A stretch of 64,000 bases of DNA from a virus. Its lineage: Duplodnaviria; Caudoviricetes. Position numbers and translations under genes: made by a program. Position 1 is the stretch's first letter. Every line of letters starts with the position of its first letter. Below the pieces are notes generated by a model. That model was not told the DNA's origin. It did no database searches and saw nothing but the letters and a program-made list of their open reading frames with translations. This document shows positions 3 through 59,955 of the stretch, piece by piece. Location: IMG/VR virus record IMGVR_UViG_3300037847_003419, positions 1,873 to 65,872 of that record. One strand, written 5' to 3'.

Positions 3-752
3 ACTACAGATATAGATTTAGTATCTGAAAAAGAAAGACAATTACAAAAAGACCTTGGATATAGAGTTGACATGAAACCATATAATAAATTAAAATGTAA
101 TAAAATGAAAATAAATGTAACAGAAATGACTACGACTTTCCCATGTCCAGTCAATAAACTTAAAGGCAGGCTTATAGATAATATAGGTATGCGATGGGAT
201 ACAGGTTTTGGTAGTGTTGTATTAACAAAAAAATCTATAGACTGGATAATGGATAATGTTAAATCGTCTCAGTTTACCAACGAAAGATGTTATGTATACA
301 ATAGAGCATTTGCTAGATGGTTTGATAATAACAATGCTTTTGATTTAGACAATGCTAAACAAATGAACGAAGTTGAACAAAGAAGAAACGGTACGTTAAC
401 TGGTGGCTTAGCGCCTACAGGTGTTAGACAACAAAAGTATTGTGATGATAGTTGTTCAGAAGTTAGTATGTTTGAACTAATAAGAATGTGGGCTGATAAA
501 AGAGGCCTGTATGACAAAGGTGATCCTAAAACACAAGCTTTAAAACTTGTCGAAGAAGTTGGTGAAACTTGTAGAGCTATATTAAAAGGTAACGATATGG
601 AAGCGATCGACGGTATTGGTGATTGTGTTGTTGTTTTGACAAACTTAGCTGAGTTAATAGGTGAGCCAATTGAACAATGTATTGAACAAGCTTATTTTGA
701 GATTAAAGATAGAAAAGGTAAAATGGAAAACGGAACATTTAAAAAAGATTAA
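3..752 (+). CDS. 5'-truncated fusion protein with C-terminal MazG-like (all-alpha) NTP pyrophosphohydrolase
   Basis: The frame is open from base 3 (TTDIDLVSEKERQLQKDLGYRVD...), so the true start lies upstream of the window. The C-terminus has QALKLVEEVGE...DGIGD, the ExxE/ExxD-type MazG motifs. Confidence 0.8.
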   Translation, partial: TTDIDLVSEKERQLQKDLGYRVDMKPYNKLKCNKMKINVTEMTTTFPCPVNKLKGRLIDNIGMRWDTGFGSVVLTKKSIDWIMDNVKSSQFTNERCYVYNRAFARWFDNNNAFDLDNAKQMNEVEQRRNGTLTGGLAPTGVRQQKYCDDSCSEVSMFELIRMWADKRGLYDKGDPKTQALKLVEEVGETCRAILKGNDMEAIDGIGDCVVVLTNLAELIGEPIEQCIEQAYFEIKDRKGKMENGTFKKD

Positions 753-754
753 TT

Positions 755-1066
755 ATGTCAAGTAGAGAAATATATGATGCTAAAAACGGTATATCATCAA
801 GAAAAGAATATGGATTTAGAGACCCTGTAGTTAGAACTGTAGTTGATAAGTTTGTTAAACGTTCAGATGTTGGCTATGCTAAATACGGTACAACACTAGA
901 TGATGAGCGTAAATTTAAAATGAAAGGTCTTCAAAAATATTTAAATGATATACAAGAAGAGCTTATGGATGCAATATTATATATACAAGCAGCCAGAGAT
1001 GAACTACAAGATTTATCTGAAGAAGCTTTAATTGATAAAATCAAATATGATGAAGAAGAAATTTAA
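755..1066 (+). CDS. conserved phage hypothetical protein (acidic helical, possibly MazG-like fold)
   Basis: RSDVGYAKYGTTL...IQEELMDAILY pattern, typical of small phage nucleotide-metabolism-linked proteins. Confidence 0.55.
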   Translation: MSSREIYDAKNGISSRKEYGFRDPVVRTVVDKFVKRSDVGYAKYGTTLDDERKFKMKGLQKYLNDIQEELMDAILYIQAARDELQDLSEEALIDKIKYDEEEI

Positions 1067-1496
1067 ACGTAAGCGTGGTCCTGTCAGAAGTAAAAAAGTT
1101 ACTTTTGACGGGATTACATTTGCAAGTGGTTTAGAACGTTATATGTATCAAGTTTTAAAGAAAAATAAAATACACGCAATGTATGAGGGAGCTACATTTG
1201 TTTTGCAAGAAGGTTTTATGTTTGATAACGAAAGCTTTGAAAGACAAAGTAATGGTAAGGGTGATATGGTTAATAGAGGTAGTAAAAAAATACTAAATAT
1301 AAAATATACACCTGACTTTGTATCTGATACATTTATAATTGAATGTAAAGGTAGAGCAAACGAAAGTTTTCCAATACGTTGGAAAATGTTTAAAAAGTAT
1401 GTAAAAGAAAACTTGCCTCATGTAACTTTATATAAACCCCAGAATCAGAAAGAGTGTGATAAAGTAATAGAATTAATAAATGAAAGAAATAAATAA
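1032..1496 (+). CDS. T7 endonuclease I-like Holliday junction resolvase (PD-(D/E)xK)
   Basis: FASGLE...YTPDF...IIECKGR motifs; the real start may be a few codons downstream (MMKKK). Confidence 0.8.
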   Translation: MIKSNMMKKKFKRKRGPVRSKKVTFDGITFASGLERYMYQVLKKNKIHAMYEGATFVLQEGFMFDNESFERQSNGKGDMVNRGSKKILNIKYTPDFVSDTFIIECKGRANESFPIRWKMFKKYVKENLPHVTLYKPQNQKECDKVIELINERNK

Positions 1497-3351
1497 CAAA
1501 ATACTATCGGATATAACAGTGCATATGAAATATGCTAAGTTTATTCCTGAGCTACAACGTAGAGAAACTTGGGAAGAGTTAGTTGACAGAAATAAAGCTA
1601 TGCACATACGTAAGTATCCGAGTTTAAAAAATGATATAGAAACTTATTATAAATATGTATATGAAAAGAAAGTCCTCCCGTCGATGCGATCGCTGCAATT
1701 CGGTGGCAAACCTATTGAAATTAGTCCTAATAGACTTTATAATTGTGCCTATTTGCCTGTTGACCATATTGATGCTTTTAGTGAAGTTATGTTTTTATTG
1801 TTATCAGGTTGTGGCGTAGGTTATTCGGTACAATTACATAATATTAAAAAATTACCAGAAATAATTAAGCCACATATAGTTAGAAAACGTAGGTTTGTTA
1901 TTGGTGATAGTATTGAAGGTTGGTCTGATGCTATTAAAGTACTAATTAAGTCTTATATGGGCGGTAAAAGATCATCTAAAATAAAGTTTGATTACTCAGA
2001 TATAAGACCTAAAGGCGCTAGGTTAGTAACATCAGGTGGTAAAGCACCAGGTCCTCAACCACTAAGAGAGTGTTTAGTAAAAATTAAAGGTATATTAGAT
2101 GCAAAGCAAGACGGAGAAAAACTTAAAAGTATTGAAGTTCATGATATTGTTTGTCATATCGCTGATGCCGTACTCGCTGGCGGTATACGTAGAGCAGCTC
2201 TTATATCGTTATTTTCCGCGTATGACGAAGAAATGATTTCATGTAAATCAGGTCAATGGTGGGAGACAGACCCACAGAGAGGTAGAGCTAATAACTCAGC
2301 GGTGCTTATGAGACATAAAATAACTAAAGAGTTTTTTATGGACTTATGGAAACGTATAGAGCTATCTGGCTCTGGTGAACCTGGTATATATTTTAATAAC
2401 GATAAAGACTGGGGTACTAATCCATGTTGTGAAATAGCATTAAGACCTTTTCAATTTTGTAACTTATGTGAAGTAAATGTATCTGACGTAGACACGCAAG
2501 AGGAATTAAACGATAGAGTTGCCGCTGCTTCTTTTATAGGTACGTTACAAGCTGGTTACACAGAGTTTCATTATCTTAGAGAAGTTTGGCAAGAAACAAC
2601 AGAGCGCGATGCCTTGATTGGTGTGTCAATGACTGGTATTGGTAGCGGTAAAGTTTTAGATTTAGATTTAAACCAAGCGGCTGATCAAGTAAAAATGATG
2701 AACAGAATAACAGCTAAGACTATTGGTATTAATCCTGCGGCTCGTACAACATGTGTTAAGCCTGCAGGGACAACATCTCTGGTACTTGGGACGTCATCAG
2801 GTATTCACGCATGGCATAACAAATACTACATACGTAGGATGCGTGTAGGTAAAAACGAAGCTATTTATAGTTATCTTGCTATACACCACCCAGAACTTGT
2901 GCAAGATGAATACTTCAGGCCTCATGATACTGCGGTTATAGAAATACCACAAGCAGCGCCTAAAGGCTCCATTGTAAGAACAGAGTCTGCTTTTGATTTA
3001 TTAGAACGTGTTAAAAAAGTAGCTACAGAGTGGGTTGCAACAGGGCATAAGTCTGGTAGTAATACACATAATGTTTCAGCTACAATAAGTTTGAAAGATA
3101 AAGAGTGGGAAAAAGCTGGTGAGTGGATGTGGGAAAACAGAAATAATTATAATGGTTTATCTGTTTTGCCTTACGATGGTGGTACATATACTCAAGCTCC
3201 ATTTGAGGATATAACTAAAGCTAAGTATGATGAAATGACAAAACTACTTCAAGATATAGACTTAACTAAAGTAGTAGAGTTAAATGATAATACAGATCTA
3301 TCAGGCGAACTGGCTTGTGCCGGTGGATCTTGTGAAGTAACAAGCCTATAA
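1480..3351 (+). CDS. nrdJ: class II (adenosylcobalamin-dependent) ribonucleotide reductase
   Basis: RRETWEE N-terminus, NCAY, TNPCCEI active site, VKPAGTTS, C-terminal redox pair CAGGSC; no small subunit gene nearby. Confidence 0.92.
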   Translation: MKEINNKILSDITVHMKYAKFIPELQRRETWEELVDRNKAMHIRKYPSLKNDIETYYKYVYEKKVLPSMRSLQFGGKPIEISPNRLYNCAYLPVDHIDAFSEVMFLLLSGCGVGYSVQLHNIKKLPEIIKPHIVRKRRFVIGDSIEGWSDAIKVLIKSYMGGKRSSKIKFDYSDIRPKGARLVTSGGKAPGPQPLRECLVKIKGILDAKQDGEKLKSIEVHDIVCHIADAVLAGGIRRAALISLFSAYDEEMISCKSGQWWETDPQRGRANNSAVLMRHKITKEFFMDLWKRIELSGSGEPGIYFNNDKDWGTNPCCEIALRPFQFCNLCEVNVSDVDTQEELNDRVAAASFIGTLQAGYTEFHYLREVWQETTERDALIGVSMTGIGSGKVLDLDLNQAADQVKMMNRITAKTIGINPAARTTCVKPAGTTSLVLGTSSGIHAWHNKYYIRRMRVGKNEAIYSYLAIHHPELVQDEYFRPHDTAVIEIPQAAPKGSIVRTESAFDLLERVKKVATEWVATGHKSGSNTHNVSATISLKDKEWEKAGEWMWENRNNYNGLSVLPYDGGTYTQAPFEDITKAKYDEMTKLLQDIDLTKVVELNDNTDLSGELACAGGSCEVTSL

Positions 3352-11081: not shown

Positions 11082-14000
11082 TTATTTAACCCTGTGACTA
11101 GGTATGTTACATCTACCATCTTGGTTTTTTACTGGATTACCACACGGTAAGCCTTTTGAATTTGTACCACCATTGTCACCACACGTTGGACCATCTTGGC
11201 CTCCATGTACGGAACATCTATCACCGTGGTTTTTAACGTTTCTAGCACATCTATCACCATCACTTGTTGCAGCAGAACATCTAACGTACTTAGCGTCAGG
11301 ATTAGATCTTTTTTCTATCTCTACGTCTTTTGCTATTTCTTCTTCTTTAGTAAGTTTTTTCTCTTCTTTTTTATCTTCCTTTTTCTGTTCTTTAACTTCT
11401 TCTCTTACTTCTTTTACTTTTGTGTCTAAACCAACATCCCATGGATTCCAGCCAAGTATAATCATTAGCTCTTTCCAAAACATTTCTTCAAACTCTTCTT
11501 CTGTTTCAGCTTCATTGTGCACCACAGTTAAAAGATTTTGTACTCTTGAAATAACCTCGTTAGCAGGTATGTTTGTAAAAGCTTGTACTGTGTTAGCAAT
11601 TACATTTAACTGAGGATTCATAGGATCGTTCCAGTCCATAGCTTCTATAACATCCTCGTTTATTTGCTTTGTTTTTATAGCAGAGTATATTTGTCTAAGT
11701 TTTATACCTACAACTGGAGATATATTAGCAAATTGTAATATAGTATAAGTGTGATCAGCGTTCCATCCTTTAGATTCTTGCTCTTTATATTCTATTACAC
11801 CGTTTACAACAGTTACTAGTATAACACCTTCTAGACCCATACCTACTAATATGGATTCAATAGTACTTTTTATCCAACTATCAGATCTAGTCTCCCAATC
11901 TTCGTCTTCGTCCATTAAAGCAATAAAGACAGCTTGTTGCAAGCCAGTAAACAAAAGGTTTTGTATAGCTCCGTAGTATAATATATCTTTAACATTTTGA
12001 GCAACTGTACCTCTTTTGTTTCTTATATTGTCAATTGCATTAACTATTTTACGAGTATACTGTTGCGGTGTTACTTTGAAGTTTAATAAAAACTTACCAA
12101 GTATAGACGATTGTTCGTAAGATAATTTATCAGGTCTGATAGACTGTTGTGTCGCTTGTGTGTTTTCCCATGTTTTATCCCAAGCCATTTGCTCTGCTTC
12201 TTGTTTAGAGTAACCTTGGCTAATAAAATAATTTACATAATTTCTATAGTAAGCAGCACCACCTAAAGAAATAGCTAAACTATCCGCTATTTGTGTCATG
12301 AGAAATCCTTTACTTAGTAACCATCCAACGGCTGCTCTAGACTGTGCTATAACACCACCTTCTATTGTTGACATATAATCAACGAGTTCACTTATATTAA
12401 CATCTATTTTTCTACCACCTCTTCTAGCAACCATATCAGGATGCATTAATATAAAACCAACGTCAGCCCAATATTGTTTTACATTAGCAAAGGCACGAGC
12501 AGAGTTAAATAAACTGTTAGGACCTCTAAGTTCTATATAGTTTATACTAGAAAGCATCTGTAATATTGCTGAACGTGTATTAGCAAACATAACAACCGCT
12601 GTAGAACCACCTAAAAATTCCATCCAAGCTTTTTCTAAAGTACCCATTTCTGAAGACCTTTTAGGTTTACCGTTTTCCATTTTATAAAGCATCTCTTCTA
12701 CATACTTTCTAAAAGAACTTCCGTACAGAGCTTCTATCTTATTTAGATTAGCTTCACTAAATACTTCGTTTTTAATTTCAATCCAGTCTTTTAATACTTC
12801 AGCTCTAACACCACTGTTCATGTGGAAGTATAAATCTCCACTTATAGTATTTACAACCCAATCTTTTCCTGGTGTTACATAACCGTCGGTTATATTGTCT
12901 AAGCCCTGTGCGTACAATAATAGGTCTGGATTATTTTCAACTGTTGAAATTAATTCTTTTAACTCTTTTTTACTTAATCCTAGTTTGTCTTTGTGTCCGT
13001 TTTTATTAAAAAGCCAAACTCTAACAGCGTCTCCATTAGTAAAACCTGTTTTACCAATCTCTTGTTTTAAAAGTTTTTTAAGTTTTTGCTTGCCAATTTT
13101 ACTTCTTATTTTATCATGAAGCTCTCTTGTCTCAGCTTTTCTTCTATCAATTTCACTTAAAGCTCTAGCGTAAGGTGTTATTAAGTTTTCAATTAAATAC
13201 TCTAACTCTTTTTCTCCTTTTGCGCCTTTACCAATAAATACTCTTAACATCTGCTCAAAATCCATAGCAGAAGGATTCATTATGAACTGGAATCTACCTT
13301 TGTTTTTACCATGCGCTTGTGCTTGCGCTCTTGAAAACTCTTGATTTTCAGGTATGTTGGCATTTTCTGATAATATAACATTAAAGTTTTCTCCTAAAGA
13401 ATTTTTATTTTCAGGTCTTGTTACTATAGATTTACCACCGTCAACAAACATGCCCTCTGGATACATGTCAAACATTTTTTGAACAGCCTCTACGTTTGGT
13501 ATATGATCGTCTATAAAAACAATATCGTTATAACCATTAAAAATTAAATTCTCTTCTATCCAATCTGCTTTAGCTTCACCGGTACTATTACCTAAACCTA
13601 TTACATTTTCAGCTTTTAAATAAGGAACGTTAGTTCCATTAGCTTTGTTATACACGTCTATTCTAAAGTTTATAAAAGCAAGTATATTTGGTTGAGAACC
13701 TGAGGCTCTTGCTGTAAGTATAAAAACGCCTTCTGGTCCAAATCTTATAAGTTGCTTTATTAAGTAAGGAAAAACAGGACCTTCCTTACCGTCTGTAACA
13801 TTATCAAAGTCAGAGAAGTCCATTTCCCAACCTTCTTGTAGTAACCTGTCACCATCCTTAGCCCAATCAACGCCGTCTAAATCTCTAGTTTCACCAGTCT
13901 CTGGATTAGTTGCTATTACAACGTTACTACTTTCGCCAACAGTTAAATCAAAGTCCAAAACAGTACCTCCTAGATAAGGTAAACCTATAGAGTGTTTATT

Positions 14001-17000
14001 TATAATTTGTTTTCTTTTTTCTCTTTTCTCTCTTGATACTTCTGATTCAATTAAAGCTAGTTTGTTTTTGGCTTGTTCTATAAGTTCATCAACTTTTAAA
14101 TCAAATTCAACACCACTAATATGCATTATAGTTTTTCTAATTTGCTCTGGTAATTGTTTTAATCTTTCAAAGCCAAGAGTACTGTTGGTACCTGTAAGTT
14201 TATCTATAAGATCCATCTGTACCTTTGGTCCTAACCATTGTCCGTGATCAGAGAATAGCTCTTTAACTCTTTCTTTTATATTTATACTAGGATCTTTAGT
14301 TGACTCTAACATAAGCTTCATAAGACTAAACATTTTATTACCGTTTGGATCTATATGCTCACCTTTTTGAAACCAAGTACTAACTTTGTTTTCTATAGTA
14401 ATTAAATCTAAAGTTGTAAACGCTCTAAATCCTTTACTGATATTTGTTTGTGCTTGTAATAAGTGTAACGCTGACACTATACTTATCTTACCATCTTTAA
14501 CAAGGTTTACTAACTTTTCAGTCATGTATTCTAATAATATTATATTAGCCTTATTAGCGTTTCTTATCTCATCACCAAACAATCTTTCTAACCTTTCTTC
14601 TTTTTGCTCTTTTATTGATGGCGCGTCTGGTCCAGTATCATAATCTGTAGCGGCTAAAACTTGGGTATATATCTTTTTCATTAAACCGCTACCACTATTC
14701 ATCTCTCTAATATCCGCAACAACTAGACTAGAAGGTAAGTCTGAGTCAATGTTTTTTAGTCTACTAATTAAGTTTTGATGCCTTTCGTAAAACTCACCTC
14801 TTACTAACTCAGCACCGTCACTAACAGGGTCTACTGATATAGTTCCTTTTGCAAACTTACCATCGTCGTTTACCTTTATAAAATCATTTGTCTCTGGTCT
14901 AAACCTCCAGCCTTTTACTAACTTACTAGTTTCGCCGTTACCAGATTGATTGTTTTTGTCAAATTTTCCTTCAGATCTCTTAGGCCCTTGTTTAGAAGCG
15001 CCTATATCCATAGCTGAATAATGGAAACCAAATATATCTGGCCCTAATGCTAAATAAGCATCATAACCCAACTCTAATATTACAGCTTCCATAGCGTCAA
15101 ACATTCTATCTAAAACGCCTTTACCATCTTTATCTACGTTACCGTTGTTCTTTATAGTACCATCGCTTTTAAATTGATTCGCTATATCTCCAAAACCGTT
15201 TTGCTCTAACCATTTAATTGTTTCTTTTTTAAAGAAAACTTCTTCGTTAGTTTCAAAAGCAACTTTATCATTAGCGTATATTACTGTCGCTATAGATTCT
15301 TTACTATACTTACCTTCTTCACCTATAACCTCTAAGTTATCCTCATCAATAACATCTTCGTAAGAACTTTTTCTAATTAGCCTAGCTATAGCACTAACTT
15401 CTTTTAAGTATTTCTGATTTAAAAGTATTTCAAAACCAAATATTTCAAACTGGTCTCCAAGAGAAAACTTCATCAAAGGATCTCTTTTTATAGTCTCTAC
15501 TAGTTTACCAGTTATAGTTTCTAACTCATTAGGTAAAGCATCAAAAACAGCGTCTAAACCTAACTCAGCAGCTAAAGAGTTTATTAAAGATTTGTATCTA
15601 GTTTCTCTTCCTTCTGTAAATAAAGCTACAAAAACATCATTATCAATGTCATAGTTTTTAATCCATATATCATTACCAGCTGTACCACTTAATACAAAAG
15701 CACCTTTAATATCAGTCTGTTCTTTAACAGATTTATCTACAGGCATTCTACCTCCATGCGTAGATAATTCAGGAAATCTATTTTTATATTTAACAGCTAG
15801 TAAATCTATTATTAATCTTTTGTTATCTAATAAAAACTTTTTAAGCGTAGCGTCAGTTCCTCTTCTATTTGTAGGATTTATTATACCTTTTATAACATCT
15901 TTAAATGCTTCTGTAAACTCTTTCTCTAGTTCTTGTCTAAACTTTTTCTTTTGTTTTGGGTTTTGTAAAGCATCTTCTAAGGTTAGAGCATCTACTTTGC
16001 TCATTAAAGACTCTTTAACTTTGTTAAATATTAATTTATAAGTATCACTATCTTTTGTTATACCAAAAGCTTTTCTTAGTTTAGAGTTTATTAATTGATC
16101 AACAGTAGTTTCAATACCCTCAATTTCATTACCAAAGTCGCCACCACCATCATCTTTAATATCATCTTGCACTTCTGTTTTAACTACGTTTAATTGAGCT
16201 TTTTCAAGTATGTTACCTACTTGTAACTTTACGTTTTGCATTAAATACTTACTAAGCTCTTGTCCAAAACTAGGGTCGTATCTATCAATATATTTAAGTA
16301 TTTCTAACTCTATGTCTCTTCTAAAATCAACAAACTTATAAGCTTGCTCAGGATTACTTTTTTGAGCTTCAAAGTTCCATATCTTACTTACAGTAGTAAC
16401 ATAAGGCTGCATCAACTTAAGTATCTTAGTTTTCATTATTTGTTCACTAATATCACCATTAAGATACGAGTTATACACATTAGCAACAGCTAACGATCTT
16501 TCCTCTTGACTCATGCCTTTATTAGTTTCTTGATTTAACAGCTCGTCTCTTCTAGCTCTTTTTTCGTTTAGTGCGTCTTCGTTTTCTTTTTGTAACTCTT
16601 CTTTTCTATTATTGTATTCTGTAGTACCAGGAACTAAATTTTCTTCCTTAAGTGTATTTTGTATTTTAAGTGATATATCTCTTATATCATTTTTTATTTG
16701 AGTTAGTTCTATTTGTTCGTTGGTTGAAAGAGAATGTTTAGTAACGTCAGTTTCAGTATCGTCTGTTTCGTCTCCAAATATAATTTTGCTTCTTTTTGTT
16801 TGAGAGTGGTATTTACTAATATACCTATAAACGTCCATTGGACTATTAAAGTTAATATAAGGCGCAAGGCTTGGTTTGAGTTTTTTAAGTAAACCATTTA
16901 TAAACACTCTTAAATCAAACAGTTGATTAAAATCACTAGGTTTTAAACCTCCCCAAAACATTATGTCATGAACTATATTCATTAACTCTTCAGTTCTTAC

Positions 17001-20000
17001 AGACTTATTTTTAACATTTTTTTCATAAAACTCTATACGTTTTTTGAAATGTGTTAAAGCCTCTGGAGTTAATTTCTTTTGTTTAGCAAGTTTATTCATA
17101 AGGCCCTTTAACTCTTCAACAGCTTTTTGATGTTGTTTCTTTAATTCGCCTTTTAATATAAGACCCTTAGTAATATGGTACTCATGAAATATTTCGTGTA
17201 GAGGAGTTGCGGCAGCGTCTGACGCTTCAAGTATGTCATCATGAAGAAGTATTTTTTGCAAAATAAAACCGTTAAGTATATACAAATTTCCAGTTCGATC
17301 TGATCTATAACCATTAGATTTTTTACCTTCAATAGCTGCTTCAAGTTCAGCTATTTCAGATTTAATTTGCTCTTCACTGAATCCTTGGCGTTTTAGTTGT
17401 TTTTTTATTTCTTTTATCTCTTTAGGAGTTGGCAAAACACCTTTTATAATAAATTTAGCTTTTTTAGTTTTAGTGCCTTTCATTATAAGTAAAGCTGATT
17501 GATAAGCTGATAGAAGTTGTTTTCTTCTAACTGGATTAATACCTTTTTCTATCATCTTTGCTTCGTACTCTTCCATCAACTCGTTTACTTCAGAGTTTGC
17601 TTCAAAAAAAGCATCTATTTGATCCTGTATTTCTTTATATTCTTTTTCTAGTTGCTCTATTTCTTTTTTGTCAAAATCTAATTGCTCACCCATTTTTTGA
17701 GCTTCAAGAAGTTTAGCTTTTCTTTTAGCTGCCAGATCAAATATTTCTTTAATTTTTTGACCTTTACTTTTTATAATGTTACCATTTTCGTCAACATCAT
17801 CTTTGATATTATCTAACTTACCAATTATATTGTTTTCAAGCTCATTTAACTGTTTTAGCAAGTCATCTTTTCTTTGTGTTAACTCAGATATATCTTGTTT
17901 GCTTAAATTTCCTTCCTTTTTATTTTCGTTTAAATCTTGTGTTATAGCCTCTAGTTCGTTCGCTAACTCTTCAACCAATGCCATTTCTTTGCTAGTCAAA
18001 ACAGATTCTCTAATAACTAAAGCTATAGGTTTAAGAGAGGCGTTTGTTTGTAATATGGTACTAAAAGCAACAACATTAGCATAAAAATCAGCGTCCATTC
18101 CATCAAAAATACCTATTTGGCCACCTGTAGATGTAGTTTCTCCAGTTAGTATAGCTAAAGCATTTTTAGAAATTTGATCTAACATTTCTTCAAAAACTTC
18201 AATACTTATATTCAAGCCAACAAAACCTCCAACCTTAAATAGATTTTTAACCCTCATGCCTGGACCTAACTTTGGCTTAAATTTTTGCCATTTTTGAAGT
18301 ACCTTTAACGTACCAAAACGCTCAGCAACACCAGTTATAATACCGTGCGAAATAGAAACAAGTCTATCACCTGTTTCACTACGTTCTAATATACTTTTTT
18401 GCACTAGTATTTGTTGCTGTATAAATTCTTTTTCACCTTCACTTAAATTAGGATCTAATAGTTGTGATTCTAATTTTTGTATTATAGCGATAGCGTTTTT
18501 CCTAGATGTTTTAACATCAGTGTATTTACCTCCAGCTGCCCAAGACGCAAATATAGCGGTAGTAATATAAGGCCCAACTCCTGGTATTAACATCGTTAAA
18601 AGAGCGGCGCCGTTAGCACTATTTGAAACTAGCATATCAGCAAACCAAAGGCCAAGTCCTACGTCATCCTTCCATTTTGAAGCTTGAGGAAAATTTTCTG
18701 AGTAAACCTCCATGGTCTCTCTTGCTTTTTTTGTAAAGAACTCTCCCCATATCTCATCACCCCATAAAGCCTCTGATGCAGCAAGTATCTGTGTAAGCAT
18801 TGTGCCTAAATTAACAAAAGTTTTGCTCCAGTAGTCATAATTTTTACTCAAAGCTGAATAATAAGGAGCGTTTTTGTCTAAGTTGTTTTTGTCTTCTAAA
18901 AGTAGTTTTTGATCAGTATCTAAATCGTTAGTAAAGTTAATTATTCTTTGTCGTTCTGATACAGCTTTTTGAAAGTCATCAGCTATTTCTGTCATTCTAC
19001 TTATAATACCAGCTATGTAGCTTCTATCAACAGCAGAAGAATCCTTGTCTAACATAGATGCGGCTAGCTCTTTTTGAAGCCTTGTCATTTCGTCTATAAT
19101 AGGCTGTTGGTTTTTTTCCCAGTCTTTAGTTCGTTTTTCAAGACTATATTCTGAATAATTATTTAAGTCTATACCATCTTTTAACAGTAGATCAAATTGT
19201 TCAGGGTATTTTCTTTTAAAATCTTTTATACCCTCTTGCCTAAGCAAAATCTCTAACATTCTAAACGTTTGTTTTTTAAGAAGCGCCTCTTGTATAAGTT
19301 CACCAGACTTAGCGGGATCTTCAACAAAAGGTATGTCATCTAACATTTTTAAAATATCGTCAGATCCTCCTAGTTCGTTTAATCTAGCTCTAACGCCTTT
19401 AAATACAGTTGTACCTGCGTCATGCTTCTTGCCTTTACCTCCAATTCTTAAAAGACCGTCTTTACCGAAGTAAACATATTGTCTACCGTCTATACCACCT
19501 CTAGCTATATTGTAACCGTCTTTTATTTGTTGTAAAATATTATCAACTGTTAAAATACCTCTTGTTTTCTTTACATTTAAAAATACTAACTCTCCATTTT
19601 TATTTTTAAAATAAACAAAAGCAACTTCTTCTCCATTTATTTGTTTGTATATAACAGGTTCTTCAAAGTTCTTTATACCAGTACCATTGTTAGTTAAAAA
19701 ATTATTAGTTATTCTATGAGCCTTTTCTATTTCACTTTCAGTAATTCCAAAATTAACCATCATAGCTTCTTCGCTAAAAACATTAACGCCTCTTTTCTTT
19801 TTTTGGTTGTCGTTAAGATTTATAATTTTGTTAAATAAATTTACAGCTCTATTGTAATAATTTTTTAATATAGCATATTCATCCTCTCTACCTTCTAACT
19901 GTATCTCATTAATTATTTCTGCAATAGCGCTTTTTCCTTTAAGACCTGCTTTACGCGCGTCGTAAATAGATTTTATTATAGCAAGATCTTGTTTAGTAAC

Positions 20001-32700: not shown

Positions 32701-33502
32701 TTCCTATTTTTGAAGTTTTTATATTTATTTTTTTAGGCTCATTAATATTGTCGGTAAAAAACAAAAGATCATCAACTATATTTATGCCTGTTACATGCTT
32801 TCCGTTTTGAAAGTTAAGTATTCTTTCACTAACAAAAGTTAAAGTTGTACTTGAACTACCACCAAAAATCAAATTAAATGAATCGCTAGATTTTTCAAAA
32901 ACTAAATTTGCTTGATTACCAGTTGGAAAATTTTGTACATTAGAAACTATTACACTAGTGTCGTTAGTAACAGATATACCAGTACTAGGATTTGTTACTG
33001 TAATTGAGTCCTGTGCAAATTGAACCGTAGTACCAAACAAACTATCTTCTATGGTACCAGTTAGTATCATGCCTTCTCTTATACTTGAGTGAGATGGTAT
33101 GTTAGAATCTAATATTAAGTAAGATTGAGGTGTAGATATAGCAGCAGTAAAGTTGTATTCAACTTTATAAATATCAACAAAAACAGGCGCCACAGTATTC
33201 GTATTAGGATTGTATTCTACAATCATATCTTTTGCGACACCACCAAAAGCGTTACATTGTACTAAATAATATATTTTATTTGTTTTTTCATTCGCGTAAG
33301 AACCAACAACATATCCACCGCCAGGAACTAAACTTGTTAACTTATTGTTACCTCTAACACCTTGAACGGTACCAACTTCAGAGCCTTCCGAAGTTTGTAC
33401 TTCGATATTCATTGCCTCTCTATATTCCCCATCATTGATTAGTCTTTCATCAAGGTCTAAATTCATTATACCCTTGATAAAGTTTTGTTTTAACTCTGGC
33501 AT
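26723..33502 (-). CDS. tail nozzle/stabilization (muzzle-like) protein with inserted domains
   Basis: N-terminal MNLDLDERLI..GEYREAMNIEV..SEGS; NCYSFGNGVESNRIRDDFN and GEYGISKNPESFA blocks as in Bacteroidota podovirus tail stabilization proteins. Confidence 0.7.
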   Translation of the reverse strand: MPELKQNFIKGIMNLDLDERLINDGEYREAMNIEVQTSEGSEVGTVQGVRGNNKLTSLVPGGGYVVGSYANEKTNKIYYLVQCNAFGGVAKDMIVEYNPNTNTVAPVFVDIYKVEYNFTAAISTPQSYLILDSNIPSHSSIREGMILTGTIEDSLFGTTVQFAQDSITVTNPSTGISVTNDTSVIVSNVQNFPTGNQANLVFEKSSDSFNLIFGGSSSTTLTFVSERILNFQNGKHVTGINIVDDLLFFTDNINEPKKINIKTSKIGTPNFNTHSKFPIFKPNTNVVVTNKFAKLYNTTVVKKSPLTPPSLEMYNDIGGRGLIFGKTDPVNFSNQVLTNPGAGAGNFIYNNEPFVEGTSVDIEFSSVTPDFEIGDILIFSNDQDILSDIRIFTDAQVRAVVTDIDTSVSPDKITVKILSFKKGFFPFVAGGEEWAVCLEQSKALFEFKFPRFAYRYKYQDGEYSSFSPFSDVAFIPGRFKYDAKEAHNLGMVNQLRFLKILDFVPDGIPEGVVCVDILYKESNSPNVYTVKTIEHGDPQWLEYGHVTPQSPWTGQTKGAVQLESELIYAAVPSNQILRPWDNVPIKARSQEISANRLIFGNYTEGYDINNNVNINTYLKSLDISPETSEDFIVGKGYPSIKSLRTYQIGIVYRDKFGRETPVFTNENATFNTAKQLADKSTSLSVQSNTSVPKWVHSYKYFVKETSNEYYNLALDRWYDATDGGIWLSFPSAERNKVDENTYLVLKKQHDTDDFVEEPARYKVISIKNEAPDWIKTEYSNIGVGTAATSTFNQTFTSADAQVVYTGNPGFEEYARGKEGLVLRLFDADQSSDWYPIKRFDFTNSTITIKNSFGIDITADILGGNNSSVKVEVAQKRTYNKPEFQGRFFVKVKQDTALINGIDTVNHDITTTTFTIKQQKKQYYIKSSGLDNNWNQKQQWTEKAGSWDKVIKEGFYIDEIDRNWGTIPGGPGPWAKDSGKGITYSRTGKLANHIELSLSRINDQTQEGFSIANHEKSDRDFYNALKSPNTWIRWAEDPNKIVYEIYFAQGQGDSDYDDYHNQSKKNSPGIYNYDGGKNKPRTWRANKTRRLYLKLRATGYMDPGSTGNYVFDAAIKGADPTWVSDFIYANQTQGVYSSSNTSGFVQCTPTIGWKPTTNHKAGAGSIQTGTQTSIQQPTTSGNNPGFNNPNSPGSIITTPGNTGLTTTVVQDTENFYNNIQIVEKYNPEVDKEMSDNPAIFETEPKEDIGLDIYYEMDQAFPVLLSGETNELFAKIGSEVQVDYPGAKLQTWKDLTPGGNPWTITVTSGNNFGTTNTNISNWVKEGFTIQNSSNLIPSVFPSGTLVTNVSGNTVFFSENATSSINNAPITFTKISLPKIKNWNENKITLDTFVYNPQTFVVNQSTAFISDNVVLPLAMSGTNNKNNLIFKKIDGGTITGSIFGDGNIIAAKVNASGFLELSLVKEVFNSKIDLKWHNCYSFGNGVESNRIRDDFNAVTIDKGPRASTVLAKTYKRERKSSSLIYSGIYNNISGVNDTNQFIMAEKITKNLNPRHGSIQKLHAREGDLIALCEDKVLRILSNKDALFNADGKPQLIATSNVLGQATPMGGEYGISKNPESFASQAYKAYFTDKSRGKVLQLDGNGLIPISDHGLKDYFADNLPGQNLLIGSYDDKKDNYNISLVNKLETVSYGVRNNGWESFKSFIPETGVSLNNNYYTFKLGELYQHHNGNTGTFYGLKQNPYIDVVFNKLPNVVKSFGSLNYEGSQARVTEDLGDNEYFNNTGLKGWFVKEGETNLQSTSVLEFKDKEGKWFSRVKGRSTNASNIDLKEFSFQGIDMADTFVLNSEIGCTDPDAVNYDPTATVDDGSCCFDYGCTDSQVGMFPATNGLDRFGAPCTFPCVDANNNPIGFAADNYNPKFDCCSPDDPNGFNMGNCCNFPPFYYGCTDPNASNYWAGANFDDGSCIYPGCTDPTALNYDSAAYPDDGSCIYCSQGSIDMTPETGTGTFPNIVVAGTNINVSNTNVATALNSDIASNNIVVGCEVISQYLPAGTTITNIQVVSSVKSKLFLSNQFINAPTGFSGGIIASYSCNCDDYELRVSNTFAGVGDTDGNFGDNLYTVTTFTMPNITPGTLIHSALNSVAAFLLIQPDAGRAIQASDFSISGATPASGTTFVGGTLPPEVVSVNFQDTENPVYLNYNVSGGSMPNPNYDANYSATPTNEIAVIVELNPIAMPNNDLAIEIDIDGFTQSLQPIINTVTVI

Positions 33503-49095: not shown

Positions 49096-49353
49096 TTAAT
49101 CTATAAGTACGACGTCTTGTTGTTTTATAACGCCGTAAAATTTATCTTTATGTTGTATACCGTGGCCTGCGTGTTTATCGTAGTATATAACGTCGTCATT
49201 ATTTATACCTTCTACTAAATTACCAACAGATACAACTTTTGCCTTTAAATATCTATTATCTTCGTTAATTTCATCTGTTAAAATTAATCCACCAACTTTT
49301 TTAGGCTCGTTCTTTATAGGGTCGATAATTATATAATGATTAACTGCCTTCAT
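49096..49353 (-). CDS. groES: co-chaperonin GroES
   Basis: MKAVNHYIIIDP, mobile loop KKVGGLILTD, AKVVSVG; overlaps the groEL stop. Confidence 0.85.
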   Translation of the reverse strand: MKAVNHYIIIDPIKNEPKKVGGLILTDEINEDNRYLKAKVVSVGNLVEGINNDDVIYYDKHAGHGIQHKDKFYGVIKQQDVVLID

Positions 49354-50905
49354 CTACTCTGATATTTGAAATTACACAATCAGCGGATATAATAGTAGTC
49401 ACAACAGAAATAGAATTTTTAAGTGCTGTTTTAGTTACGAGCACAGGATCTATAATACCCGCCTTTACCATTTCGACTTCTTCACCTGTTATAACGTTTA
49501 TACCGTTACCACCAGCAAGCTCTTCAGTTTGATCTATACCAGCATTAGACAATATAGTTTTATAAGGAGCTTTTATAGCGTTTAATAGTATTGCTTCACC
49601 TACGTTTTCACTAGCTATTCTTTCCGATGCGTTTAATAAGGCAATACCACCTCCTGGAACTATACCTTCTTTCAAAGCAGCTTTAGTAGCATATATCGCA
49701 TCTTCTACTCTATCACGTTTTTCTTTTAGTTCAACCTTCGAGTTAGCGCCAACGCGCACGATTCCAACACTACCTGACAGCATTGCTATTCTTTGCTGTA
49801 TTTTTTTCTTTAAAAAGCCGTTTTTCTCTGCTTTGTGTAGCTTTTTAACTTCTTTTATACGATCTTTTACACTTTCGTCAATATTTTCAAGCGTAATTAC
49901 TGTATTTTTATCGTCTGTAACAGCTTTTTCAGCTTCACCGAGTATATCTAGTGATATTCCGTCTAAATCATCACCTAATTCTTCGTTAATTACAGTAGCA
50001 TTTGTTAAAATAGCTAAATCTTTTATAGTATCTTGCTTTGTAGGACCAAAACCAGGTGGGTCTATGATATTAACTTTAATATTACCTTTAACTTTATTCA
50101 TTAAAAGCGCAGATTTAACCTGTTGTGACACTGGAGCTACTATTAAAAGTGATCTATTGTTTTTAATAACGTACTCTAGTATGTTTTGTATCTTTCTAAC
50201 ATTAGGTATCTCTGAAGCTACGACTAAAACTAGTGGATTTTCAAGTACAGCTCGCTGTTTTTCTGTGTCTGTAATAAAGTGTGGTGATGTAATACCGCAT
50301 TCAAGTTGTACACCATCAACTAATTCTACATAAGTTTCGTCAGTTTCAGAACTTTCCATTAAAACAACGCCATCGTTACCAACTTTTTTGTAAGCTTCTG
50401 CAATAATAGCACCTAGTTCTTTATCATTATTACAACTAATAGCTGCAACATTGTCTAACATGTCGTCTTTTACCTCAATTTTAATACTATCAAGGTATTC
50501 GTTTACTTTTTTAAGCCCAGAAGCAATACCTTCTTTTATATCTCTTGTAGTAAATTCTTTGTAAGATCTGTTGCTAATTTCTTTTATAAGTGATTCAGCA
50601 AGGACGGTAGCTGTAGTAGTACCGTCACCCGCTTCTTTCACTGTATTTCTTGCGGCTTCTTTAATAAGTGTAGCGCCCATGTTTTCAACCGGATCAAATA
50701 AGACAACTGATTCAGCTACAGTTACTCCGTCTTTTGTGATAACCGGTTTACCGCGTCCATCTTCGTATATTACGCACTTACCAGAAGCGCCTAGTGTGGA
50801 TTTTACGGCTTGAGCTAGCTTACTTACGCCAGCTATAATTCTAGATTTAGCAGAATCGCCAAAATTCAAGTCTTTGACAATCTCGCTAGGTAGATTGTAT
50901 TCCAT
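49340..50905 (-). CDS. groEL: chaperonin GroEL
   Basis: TLGASG, ITKDGVTVA, AGDGTTTATVLA, GIVPGGG, GIIDPVLVT; no GGM tail. Confidence 0.96.
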   Translation of the reverse strand: MEYNLPSEIVKDLNFGDSAKSRIIAGVSKLAQAVKSTLGASGKCVIYEDGRGKPVITKDGVTVAESVVLFDPVENMGATLIKEAARNTVKEAGDGTTTATVLAESLIKEISNRSYKEFTTRDIKEGIASGLKKVNEYLDSIKIEVKDDMLDNVAAISCNNDKELGAIIAEAYKKVGNDGVVLMESSETDETYVELVDGVQLECGITSPHFITDTEKQRAVLENPLVLVVASEIPNVRKIQNILEYVIKNNRSLLIVAPVSQQVKSALLMNKVKGNIKVNIIDPPGFGPTKQDTIKDLAILTNATVINEELGDDLDGISLDILGEAEKAVTDDKNTVITLENIDESVKDRIKEVKKLHKAEKNGFLKKKIQQRIAMLSGSVGIVRVGANSKVELKEKRDRVEDAIYATKAALKEGIVPGGGIALLNASERIASENVGEAILLNAIKAPYKTILSNAGIDQTEELAGGNGINVITGEEVEMVKAGIIDPVLVTKTALKNSISVVTTIISADCVISNIRVDEGS

Positions 50906-58818: not shown

Positions 58819-59086
58819 AGAAATGAACAAACTAGCAGATATAATTGTTGATAAATTGTTAACAACTTATATTAGAGAACAAGCACAGTGGTATTCAACT
58901 AACACGTTTGATGATTTTATGAGTTTTAGTAAAAAGCCAAAAACAAATACTGAAGAAGAGTTGTTAGGTGAGTTAGCTAGCCTAATGACACAGTTAAATC
59001 TTCATCAAGAAAAAGAAGAATATGAGAAATGTGCTGATATAAAGAAAAAAATTGATGAACTAAAGAAAAAAATAAAGAATTTATGA
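58808..59086 (+). CDS. UVR (UvrB/C) motif protein
   Basis: C-terminal EKEEYEKCADIKKKID. Confidence 0.6.
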   Translation: MTDKEMNKLADIIVDKLLTTYIREQAQWYSTNTFDDFMSFSKKPKTNTEEELLGELASLMTQLNLHQEKEEYEKCADIKKKIDELKKKIKNL

Positions 59087-59955
59087 TGAGAAAAAAACCA
59101 ATGTTAGCATATCCCGTTAACAACAAACCAATAGATTACAGTAAACCAGTATTTATGCAACCAAAGTTAGATGGTGTTAGGTGTTTGATACAAGCTGAAA
59201 AAAGAGGTGACAAAAGCCAGTTAGGTCATCTAAAAGTTACAGCGTATTCACGTACCGGTAAAGAGTGGAAAAATATTAACCATATACTAGTAAGTCTAGC
59301 GCCTTTCTTTGACAAATATCCTAATGTTATACTTGATGGTGAGTTATATAATCATGATTTTAGAGACGATTTTGAGTCTATCATATCTATGGTCAGAAAA
59401 ACAAAACCAACCAACGAGGATATAATTAAATCAGCCGAAAACGTACAGTTTTATTGTTATGATATTGTTGATGAAGATACTTTGTTTGAAGCGCGTAACA
59501 GTTTTATTACAACACAAGTTGAATCTGGTAGATGTATCAAGCACGTTCCAACTATATCAGTATCTACAGAAGTACAAGCTAAAGATTACCATCAAGCTAA
59601 TTTAAACGCAGGTTTTGAAGGCTCTATATTACGTACTAATGATGTATATCAGTGTAAAAGATCTCATAGTTTAAGAAAGTTCAAAGACTTTCATGATGAC
59701 GAAGCTTTAATTGTAGGTTATGTTGACGGTAAAGGTAAACGTGAAGGTACGCTCGGTAAGTTTATTATGCAAGATGATAACGGTGTAGAGTTTGGTTGTC
59801 CACCTGGTAAAGGTTATACGTATGCTCAACTAAAAGACATACTTGATAACATACACGATTACATCGGTGAAAGAGCTACGTTTACATACTTTGAAAAAAC
59901 TAAAGCGGGTAGTTACAGACACCCATTGTTTAAATGTATTAGAAATTACGAATAA
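59083..59955 (+). CDS. ATP-dependent DNA ligase
   Basis: QPKLDGVR (adenylated Lys), YSRTGK, LDGELY, FEGSILR, C-terminal OB fold RHPLFK. Confidence 0.92.
   Translation: MMRKKPMLAYPVNNKPIDYSKPVFMQPKLDGVRCLIQAEKRGDKSQLGHLKVTAYSRTGKEWKNINHILVSLAPFFDKYPNVILDGELYNHDFRDDFESIISMVRKTKPTNEDIIKSAENVQFYCYDIVDEDTLFEARNSFITTQVESGRCIKHVPTISVSTEVQAKDYHQANLNAGFEGSILRTNDVYQCKRSHSLRKFKDFHDDEALIVGYVDGKGKREGTLGKFIMQDDNGVEFGCPPGKGYTYAQLKDILDNIHDYIGERATFTYFEKTKAGSYRHPLFKCIRNYE

Follow-up and report, generated by a model that had tools for sequence, protein, structure and literature searches.

A giant podophage virion-block protein with an embedded gluzincin-like module and a recurrent K-[F/Y]-S junction motif: a possible self-processing polyprotein

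Does a giant phage protein that carries several domains together with a peptidase-like module remain a single chain, or is it divided into separate proteins at defined sites? This question is raised by a single open reading frame (ORF) of 3,344 codons on the minus strand (positions 11082-21116) of the window analyzed here, a stretch of 64,000 nucleotides covering bases 1873-65872 of the 65,872-bp IMG/VR virus record IMGVR_UViG_3300037847_003419. A sequence-only reading had proposed that its product of 3,344 amino acids (aa), here termed P0001 (its homologs likewise bear P numbers), is a polyprotein in which an embedded HExxH metallopeptidase cuts at four K-x-S-[LI] sites to release a sigma-like piece, a second piece and a HAD phosphatase. 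Our analysis supports this interpretation in part: the modules, the placement of the sites in linkers and their recurrence among homologs stand, whereas the form of the motif, the number of units and the swapping of cargo between the sites had to be revised. That the junction sites are processing sites, at which the embedded peptidase converts one packaged chain into separate proteins, has in our estimate about an even chance of being correct. The predicted order along P0001 is an N-terminal virion- or membrane-associated region, a HExxH...E gluzincin-like peptidase, the sigma-domain-2-like and alpha/beta units, two units (M3 and M4) with no assigned function, the HAD phosphatase and a conserved helical C-terminal module (Table 1).

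All four motifs of the earlier reading, TKHSL, MKFSL, NKHSI and NKNSL (sites 1 to 4), were recovered where it had placed them, its 12-nt ranges corresponding exactly to the four-residue K-x-S-[LI] cores. As a description of the sites, however, K-x-S-[LI] proved too loose. It occurs eight times in P0001 against 3.1 expected, a count reached by 1.15% of 2,000 shuffles, with all eight matches falling in aa 1414-2574, while across 36 family members there are 97 matches against 97.5 expected and hence no enrichment. Judging from the aligned homologs, the conserved motif of the family is hydrophobic-K-[F/Y]-S-[K/L], with S or T as a frequent next residue. In the same 36 proteins the broad pattern [KR][FYH]S[KLIRQ] is found 57 times against 26.8 expected, and in 67 proteins of at least 1,500 aa (189,519 residues) KFS[KL] is found 41 times as compared with 5-10 times for each of five controls in which K, F and S are permuted. 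The block K-R-D-P-x-x-K-F-S at site 2 persists in distant relatives, with complete sequence divergence beyond it; by eye, 22 of 27 rows show F-S at this site and 17 show K-F-S, and at site 4 an [F/Y]-S pair can be seen in 24 of 36 rows, including rows in which no HAD domain precedes the site. A degenerate junction of P0001, KFDK, has as its equivalent in P0005 and P0006 a KFSK within a G/S/N-rich stretch. Codons differ from one site to the next among the four, and the likeness extends over only ~12 nt, indicating that selection at the sites acts on the peptide; on the same grounds the possibility that they are DNA recombination joints was excluded.

The motif also recurs at the boundaries of homology. 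In an all-against-all BLAST comparison, 107 sites of the broad motif show 6.5 times the random density of breakpoints within +-12 aa (Mann-Whitney U test, p 5e-25) and the strict motif 6.1 times, against 0.1-2.6 times for eight control patterns, none of them significant; an unbiased count of tripeptides in 398 breakpoint windows places KFS third (34 against 4.5, p 9e-19), both p-values being inflated because homologs share sites and are thus non-independent. KFS is outranked by two tripeptide blocks, which simply mark the conserved termini of the HAD domain and the C-terminal module; the 3.1-fold ratio obtained for K.S[LI] is explained by the KFSL subset that this pattern contains. The flanks of 116 sites fall into 46 clusters on the upstream and 45 on the downstream side, combining into 61 distinct pairs. 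In P0001 itself the breakpoints cluster at aa 1440-1489, 1880-1889, 2370-2389 and 2550-2579, with 20 homolog alignments starting at aa 2374-2386, six starting at aa 2570-2577 and one ending at aa 1889; the second high-scoring segment pair (HSP) of P0007 begins at aa 2550. The strongest cluster of P0001, near aa 2100, comprises 22 HSP starts at aa 2094-2107 (window ~14796-14837) and has no motif. It lies inside the N-terminal beta region of M4, ~45 residues past KFDK. P0062 (230 aa) ends in ...KFSR and P0101 (1,341 aa) in ...KFSC, exactly at the motif; either gene fission at a junction or an accident of contig ends could lie behind this, and the two proteins were not accepted as examples of natural fission, since most short matches are contig-end fragments.

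The distribution of the motif is also polarized along the chain. Upstream of the HExxH there are nine sites in 61,615 residues (0.15 per 1,000 aa) and downstream of it 90 sites in 122,324 residues (0.74 per 1,000 aa, ~five times denser), with distances from the HExxH peaking at +100-200 and +500-650. The motif is absent from 13 of 13 other ORFs between the giant and the portal genes and from 11 of 11 downstream of the giant gene; single matches, mostly of the KNS type, occur in five other ORFs.

Structural models place the same sites between domains. Two AlphaFold2 (AF2) models were used, one of aa 1230-2376 (27 homologs; mean predicted local distance difference test score, pLDDT, 77.4) and one of aa 2374-3344 (25 homologs; mean pLDDT 77.0). 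Among the stretches with pLDDT<50, aa 1439-1461 ends at TKHSL, aa 1885-1891 begins inside MKFSL, aa 2056-2059 is a loop just after KFDK, aa 2374-2378 is the KHSIG of site 3 and aa 2568-2571 is the start of NKNSL. The earlier placement of the motifs at domain borders is thus borne out by the predicted structures, in which the four sites and KFDK coincide with low-confidence stretches between confident domains, and in neither model do the junction motifs lie inside folded domains. Stretches of comparably low confidence that have no motif are found at aa 1643-1675 and aa 1803-1809 and in the C-terminal module and tail, and M3 contains a KYSKE at aa 1936 within its folded region.

The HExxH of the embedded module is the HEIFH at aa 1307-1311 (17184-17198), as previously reported, and the acidic pair that had been noted near 16990 corresponds to E1376-E1377 (16986-16991) in the segment TEELMNIVHD. 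All 36 first-round homologs possess a HExxH, with two in P0010. The count is exactly one in 62 of 64 giants (at least 2,000 aa, beginning with a start Met), two in another and zero in the last, as compared with 0.016 per protein after shuffling; the embedded HExxH module is accordingly a hallmark of this family of giant proteins. In alignment A1 both His residues, the Glu and a downstream Glu are at least 90% conserved, the last being E1377 in P0001, 66 residues past H1311. This combination is a gluzincin signature, and it constitutes the sole evidence for a peptidase; the fold-search lists for the model that spans it are filled by matches of the sigma-like domain.

The piece after site 1 had been described as a sigma-like unit of ~420 aa. 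A Foldseek search against the PDB returned nothing at E<=0.001, with sigma factors making up nearly all of the weak matches at the head of its list, and a second-look aligner superimposed aa 1519-1641 onto sigma domain 2, best on 6ca0_F (Z 10.6; root-mean-square deviation, rmsd, 2.9; 110 aligned). In an independent search of 48,161 representative chains, nine of the nine with Z>=8 were domain 2 of sigma factors (SigB, pro-sigma-K, SigI, sigma-28, SigA, sigma-32, RpoS, sigma-S and SigE), the best of the 48,161 being 8x6g_H (Z 10.2, rmsd 2.5, 91 aligned). For a helical domain, Z values in this range amount to moderate evidence. At the sequence level, the profile for Sigma70_r2 (PF04542) matches in this genome only the separate ORF at 61168-61923, hmmscan returned nothing, and an hhalign comparison of alignment A2 with the sigma ORF of the phage gave a probability of 0.2. 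As for sigma domain 4, two rows reach model residue 509 at an rmsd of 15, and the downstream unit is alpha/beta. The predicted domain is therefore sigma-2-like at the level of the fold only, without sequence support for membership of the sigma-70 family. The sigma-like description thus stands for the fold, whereas the single piece does not: the region consists of two units, the helical domain and the alpha/beta domain M2b, split by the unmarked linker at aa 1643-1675. Likewise, the piece of ~490 aa proposed between sites 2 and 3 exists, but it comprises the two units M3 and M4. The piece between sites 1 and 2 and the peptidase are conserved in most of the family and accordingly belong to its core rather than to a swapped cargo. 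The separate ORF on the plus strand (61168-61923) encodes a 251-aa sigma-factor-like protein that scores 25.0 bits with Sigma70_r4 (cut-off 24.1) and 20.1 bits with Sigma70_r2 (below the cut-off of 24), implying that the phage encodes a free sigma besides the sigma-2-like unit of its giant protein.

The HAD domain is indeed bracketed by the last two sites, its folded core lying at aa 2383-2565 between NKHSI and NKNSL. The residues of HAD motifs I-IV (DxDxT, S/T, K and DD), namely D2388, D2390, T2392, T2468, K2516, D2536 and D2537, show no variation among 26 aligned sequences. Foldseek alone gave E~0.1 with probabilities of 0.9-0.99; in structural comparison 149 chains reach Z>=8, and among the matches listed all are HAD enzymes. 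The best is 5uj0_B (Z 11.9, rmsd 2.5, 128 aligned), with the 3'-phosphatase of T4 polynucleotide kinase (5uj0, 1ltq) at Z 11.2-11.9, rmsd 2.5-2.8 and identity of 11-12%, bacterial Pnkp1 at Z 11.5 and generic HAD enzymes at Z 9-10.3. Together the motifs and the modelled fold make a solid case for a canonical HAD phosphatase domain. P-loop kinases of the Zeta_toxin/AAA_33 type are found in three homologs, and in P0007 a stretch of ~200 aa is added directly after the HAD domain, such that the kinase adjoins it; P0001 has no kinase. A role of the HAD unit in the healing of nucleic-acid ends might be considered as a lead suggested by these fold comparisons. The proposed swapping of cargo between the sites turned out to be limited, 32 of 36 homologs keeping one HAD domain and the span from the HExxH to the C-terminal module being mostly 1,100-1,330 aa (median 1,208 aa). 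The presence of several HAD copies in many homologs, which FDF counts had suggested, was rejected because exactly one DxDxT is found in the same 32 of 36.

The C-terminal module and the location of the gene connect P0001 to the virion. The gene closes the virion-gene block at its distal end, with the terminase, portal and capsid genes upstream of it. Searched against BFVD, the C-terminal module gave 68 matches at E<=1e-3, including pieces named as large polyvalent protein domains, with E-values down to 1e-14 outside the close family, among them a structural protein of a Tenacibaculum phage; with E-values of 1e-5 to 1e-7, the model of aa 2374-3344 matched pieces of proteins that bear the names 'Large polyvalent protein associated domain', 'PolyVal ADP-ribosyltransferase' and 'Phage MuF C-terminal'. 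These matches imply that P0001 is a polyvalent virion protein, the sharing being at the level of the fold only, as the Pfam LPD families have no sequence match in P0001. The corresponding block of Cellulophaga phage phi40:1 has as its last large gene that for gp101, which is a structural protein by tandem mass spectrometry (MS/MS); residues 290-709 of gp101 are homologous to N-terminal regions of family members (1.7e-19 to 3e-8). The matched members include P0021, which shares the HAD domain and the C-terminal module with P0001, and the link to the lineage of P0001 itself is weak (P0005, domain E 9e-4). The position in the virion block, the homology to gp101 and the matches of the C-terminal module together bear out the assignment of the family to the virion-borne polyvalent proteins.

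As regards cleavage, the protease responsible, the bond cut and the timing, we infer the following from the modules, the motif and its observed placement and conservation. The embedded peptidase would cut the linker motifs, first in cis on its own C-terminal side, and the packaged chain would be split into separate proteins either within the capsid or once ejected. Because a hydrophobic residue at P1' is generally favored by gluzincins, a cut before the aromatic residue of the motif may be guessed. Several observations weigh against such self-processing. The sites of P0001 are degenerate (KHSL, KFSL, KHSI and KNSL), with an aromatic residue in one of the four; a site of the broad motif is missing in 16 of 64 giants; about half of the broad-motif matches are expected by chance; and the significance of the breakpoint association is overstated by shared ancestry, as noted above. 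With respect to the peptidase, the Pfam and NCBIfam scans assign no family, MPTase-PolyVal (PF18818) has no match at E<=10 in a six-frame search of the genome, an identity as LPD23 (Atlas 0.94, 18% of cluster members) was not supported by PF18838, and a profile of the peptidase and sigma-like core recovered nothing significant among PDB sequences, the best hit being a designed protein at E 0.12. Moreover, gp101 of phi40:1 has neither a HExxH nor the motif, and the syntenic giant gene of the uncultured podovirus MW202828.1 encodes two HExxH and zero K-F-S-type sites.

Some of the evidence would fit a chain that stays whole. The motif would then be a conserved element that links or caps neighbouring domains, or a peptide for docking in packaging, in tail passage or to a host factor, and the HExxH module would have its targets in the host, for instance among cell-wall or defence proteins; we regard this as possible, though on the unlikely side. 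In many homologs K-F-S directly abuts conserved domain-end blocks (the HAD end 'VQQAK', or 'RDP..') and could thus be a domain-terminal structural element, and the fairly constant architecture (median span and single HAD domain, as above) means that the breakpoints may mark unequal conservation rather than module exchange. The virion RNA polymerase (vRNAP) of N4 also bears such a peptidase; a survey of polyvalent proteins (J Bacteriol 2017, PMC5512222) notes that this polymerase enters the virion without being processed, again contrary to self-processing, and a preprint on phi24B suggests that the peptidase of its 2,811-aa virion protein has a function connected with peptidoglycan. However, a structural linker does not readily account for the same tetrapeptide recurring between 61 different flank pairs, or for its location in low-confidence coil and its polarization downstream of the peptidase, and a fixed K-F-S answers no obvious need of a purely structural element.

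The sites might also be cut by some other protease, whether of the host after ejection or an unrecognized maturation protease of the phage, leaving the HExxH module with a different job. The head-maturation proteases of T4 and the giant phages trim packaged internal proteins at short motifs, and several ORFs of the virion block belong to no recognizable family, both of which would be in line with this alternative. Nevertheless, Pfam and PHROG scans of 20 virion-block ORFs detected no prohead-protease family, the motif is missing from the capsid, scaffold-position and large structural proteins and from the other ORFs up to the portal, and within its own chain it lies downstream of a universally conserved HExxH, which together render a foreign protease improbable. 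Coincidence, i.e. the chance presence of four tetrapeptides resembling one another in a 3,344-aa protein rich in Lys, Ser and Leu, could draw on the lack of family-wide enrichment of K.S[LI] and on four further matches of that pattern in P0001 away from the borders; set against the enrichment of the family motif, its border placement, its polarity and its conservation across proteins less than 35% identical, it is very improbable. As to self-processing, zincin-mediated self-cutting of giant polyvalent proteins has been proposed since 2017, with no site named in the main text (PMC5512222), and a conserved, polarized motif in at least 60 giants makes the idea directly testable.

A more far-reaching version, which we consider doubtful, is that P0001 represents a phage counterpart of a multi-effector toxin, in which the gluzincin would cut a hydrophobic-K-[F/Y]-S-[K/L] code at DNA entry, the sigma-like unit would capture the host RNA polymerase and the Pnkp-type phosphatase would counter nuclease defences. 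If true, it would amount to a protein-only alternative to the injected polymerase of N4. A sigma-domain-2-like fold in a packaged protein would, if confirmed, provide a new start of early transcription for phages lacking a virion polymerase, and the Pnkp-like phosphatase, accompanied by a kinase in some relatives, suggests that repair enzymes may be pre-delivered against host defences that cut RNA or DNA. Neither the junction motif nor a packaged sigma-like domain was found described in the main texts of the literature searched.

Table 1. Predicted layout of P0001 and its junction sites (positions in the window)
Feature	Positions	Strand	Residues	Remark
Giant ORF P0001	11082-21116	-	3,344 aa	
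N-terminal ~39 aa	21000-21116	-		conserved in P0005 and P0007 (HSPs 1-97, 1-39)
Pro/Thr/Ser-rich linker	within 20862-21116	-	aa 40-85	from sequence
First hydrophobic, transmembrane-like stretch	18549-18605	-	aa 838-856	in the N-terminal region
HExxH metallopeptidase-like module	16797-17357	-	aa ~1254-1440	extent from homolog matches and AF2 model
Junction site 1, TKHSL	16728-16742	-	aa 1459-1463	C-terminal end of pLDDT<50 linker
Sigma-factor domain-2-like helical domain	16191-16562	-	aa ~1519-1642	from fold comparison
M2b, alpha/beta domain, no function assigned	15474-16091	-	aa 1676-1881	ends in conserved K-R-D-P-x-x-K-F-S
Junction site 2, MKFSL	15459-15473	-	aa 1882-1886	best-conserved site of the family
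Module M3, no function assigned	14967-15443	-	aa 1892-2050	from AF2 model
Degenerate junction, KFDK	14955-14966	-	aa 2051-2054	KFSK in equivalent P0005/P0006 stretch
Module M4, no function assigned	14001-14939	-	aa 2060-2372	widely shared among homologs
Junction site 3, NKHSI	13986-14000	-	aa 2373-2377	pLDDT<50
HAD-superfamily phosphatase domain	13422-13970	-	aa 2383-2565	DFDLT = aa 2388-2392
Junction site 4, NKNSL	13395-13409	-	aa 2570-2574	pLDDT<50 linker
All-helical C-terminal module	11304-13394	-	aa 2575-3271	hydrophobic stretch aa 3089-3107
Lys/Glu-rich, Cys-rich tail	11085-11303	-	aa 3272-3344	low model confidence

The two ends of the protein have features of their own. The first 39 aa of P0001 are 72% identical to those of P0007, and the segment aa 1-85 is a candidate packaging or anchoring signal. 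The tail has a Lys/Glu-rich stretch and, after it, Cys residues spaced in an R-C...C...H pattern; its match to phrog_32665 (E 7.9e-4), the sole PHROG match of P0001, is weak, and the tail may be a small zinc-binding element. Scans of P0001 with Pfam (E<=1) recovered DUF6074 and TMP_3 only, both under the cut-off, those with NCBIfam gave nothing usable, comparison with PDB sequences gave 0 matches, and a Pfam scan of seven homologs gave nothing relevant. None of the modules is thus known to Pfam, PHROG or NCBIfam, which leaves the family without any annotation at present. A ParB identity for M4 (Atlas score 0.87) was considered and not supported by PF02195.

The terminase, portal and capsid of the window were assigned to PHROG families, and by terminase the nearest named relatives are the Flavobacterium 'elemo' podophages, phages of Cellulophaga, Tenacibaculum and Maribacter, and the above-mentioned MW202828.1 (63% identity). 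The genome is thus that of an uncultured podophage related to the Flavobacterium and Cellulophaga podophages. The syntenic giant gene of MW202828.1 (741-12320, minus strand; 3,859 aa) shows no significant similarity to P0001 (best E 0.54), i.e. the position of the locus is conserved and its occupant has been replaced or has diverged beyond recognition. A tblastn search with both halves of P0001 against 50,697 GenBank phage records returned nothing at 1e-5, and a search for related loci in viral contigs recovered one near-identical fragment only. Elsewhere in the virion block, a 2,259-aa protein (26723-33502, minus strand) matches phrog_14478 (E 1.2e-127) as well as gp097 of phi40:1, which is structural by MS/MS, and has no K-F-S-type site. 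A GroEL-type chaperonin (Cpn60_TCP1, E 4.9e-55) is encoded at 49340-50905 on the minus strand, and the annotation of MW202828.1 likewise includes groEL together with a 10-kDa co-chaperonin. The plus strand carries, at 3-3351 and 59083-63339, replication and nucleotide genes that code for a MazG-like protein, a class II ribonucleotide reductase, an ATP-dependent DNA ligase, an ERF recombinase and a PDDEXK (DUF3799) nuclease; the sign of the guanine-cytosine skew flips near 4 kb and 54 kb, the points at which the coding strand switches.

The architecture of P0001 is reminiscent of several known systems. MARTX toxins combine conserved terminal regions with a run of effectors, an embedded cysteine protease and short recurring linker sites. 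P0001 resembles them in outline by way of analogy only, without homology, whereas they differ from it in the class of the protease and the nature of the site, and in being secreted bacterial toxins rather than virion proteins. The N4 virion RNA polymerase jump-starts transcription after being ejected with the DNA. Like P0001, the N4 vRNAP and gp47 of phi24B are very large podovirus virion proteins with a metallopeptidase-type domain; in contrast to the former, P0001 has no RNA polymerase and would possess at most a sigma-domain-2-like unit that recruits the host enzyme. The closest fold to its HAD domain is the 3'-phosphatase of T4 Pnkp, of which the kinase half has no counterpart in P0001. 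A parallel in general organization is provided by the polyvalent proteins of the 2017 survey (PMC5512222), which proposes that a zincin domain processes such proteins into units, and whose main text contains neither 'sigma' nor 'polynucleotide kinase' and has 'cleavage site' in its reference list only. As described there, these are likewise giant multi-domain proteins, encoded among virion genes and bearing an embedded HExxH module; compared with the main text of that survey, P0001 adds to this scheme the junction motif, the sigma-2-like unit and a Pnkp-like HAD domain.

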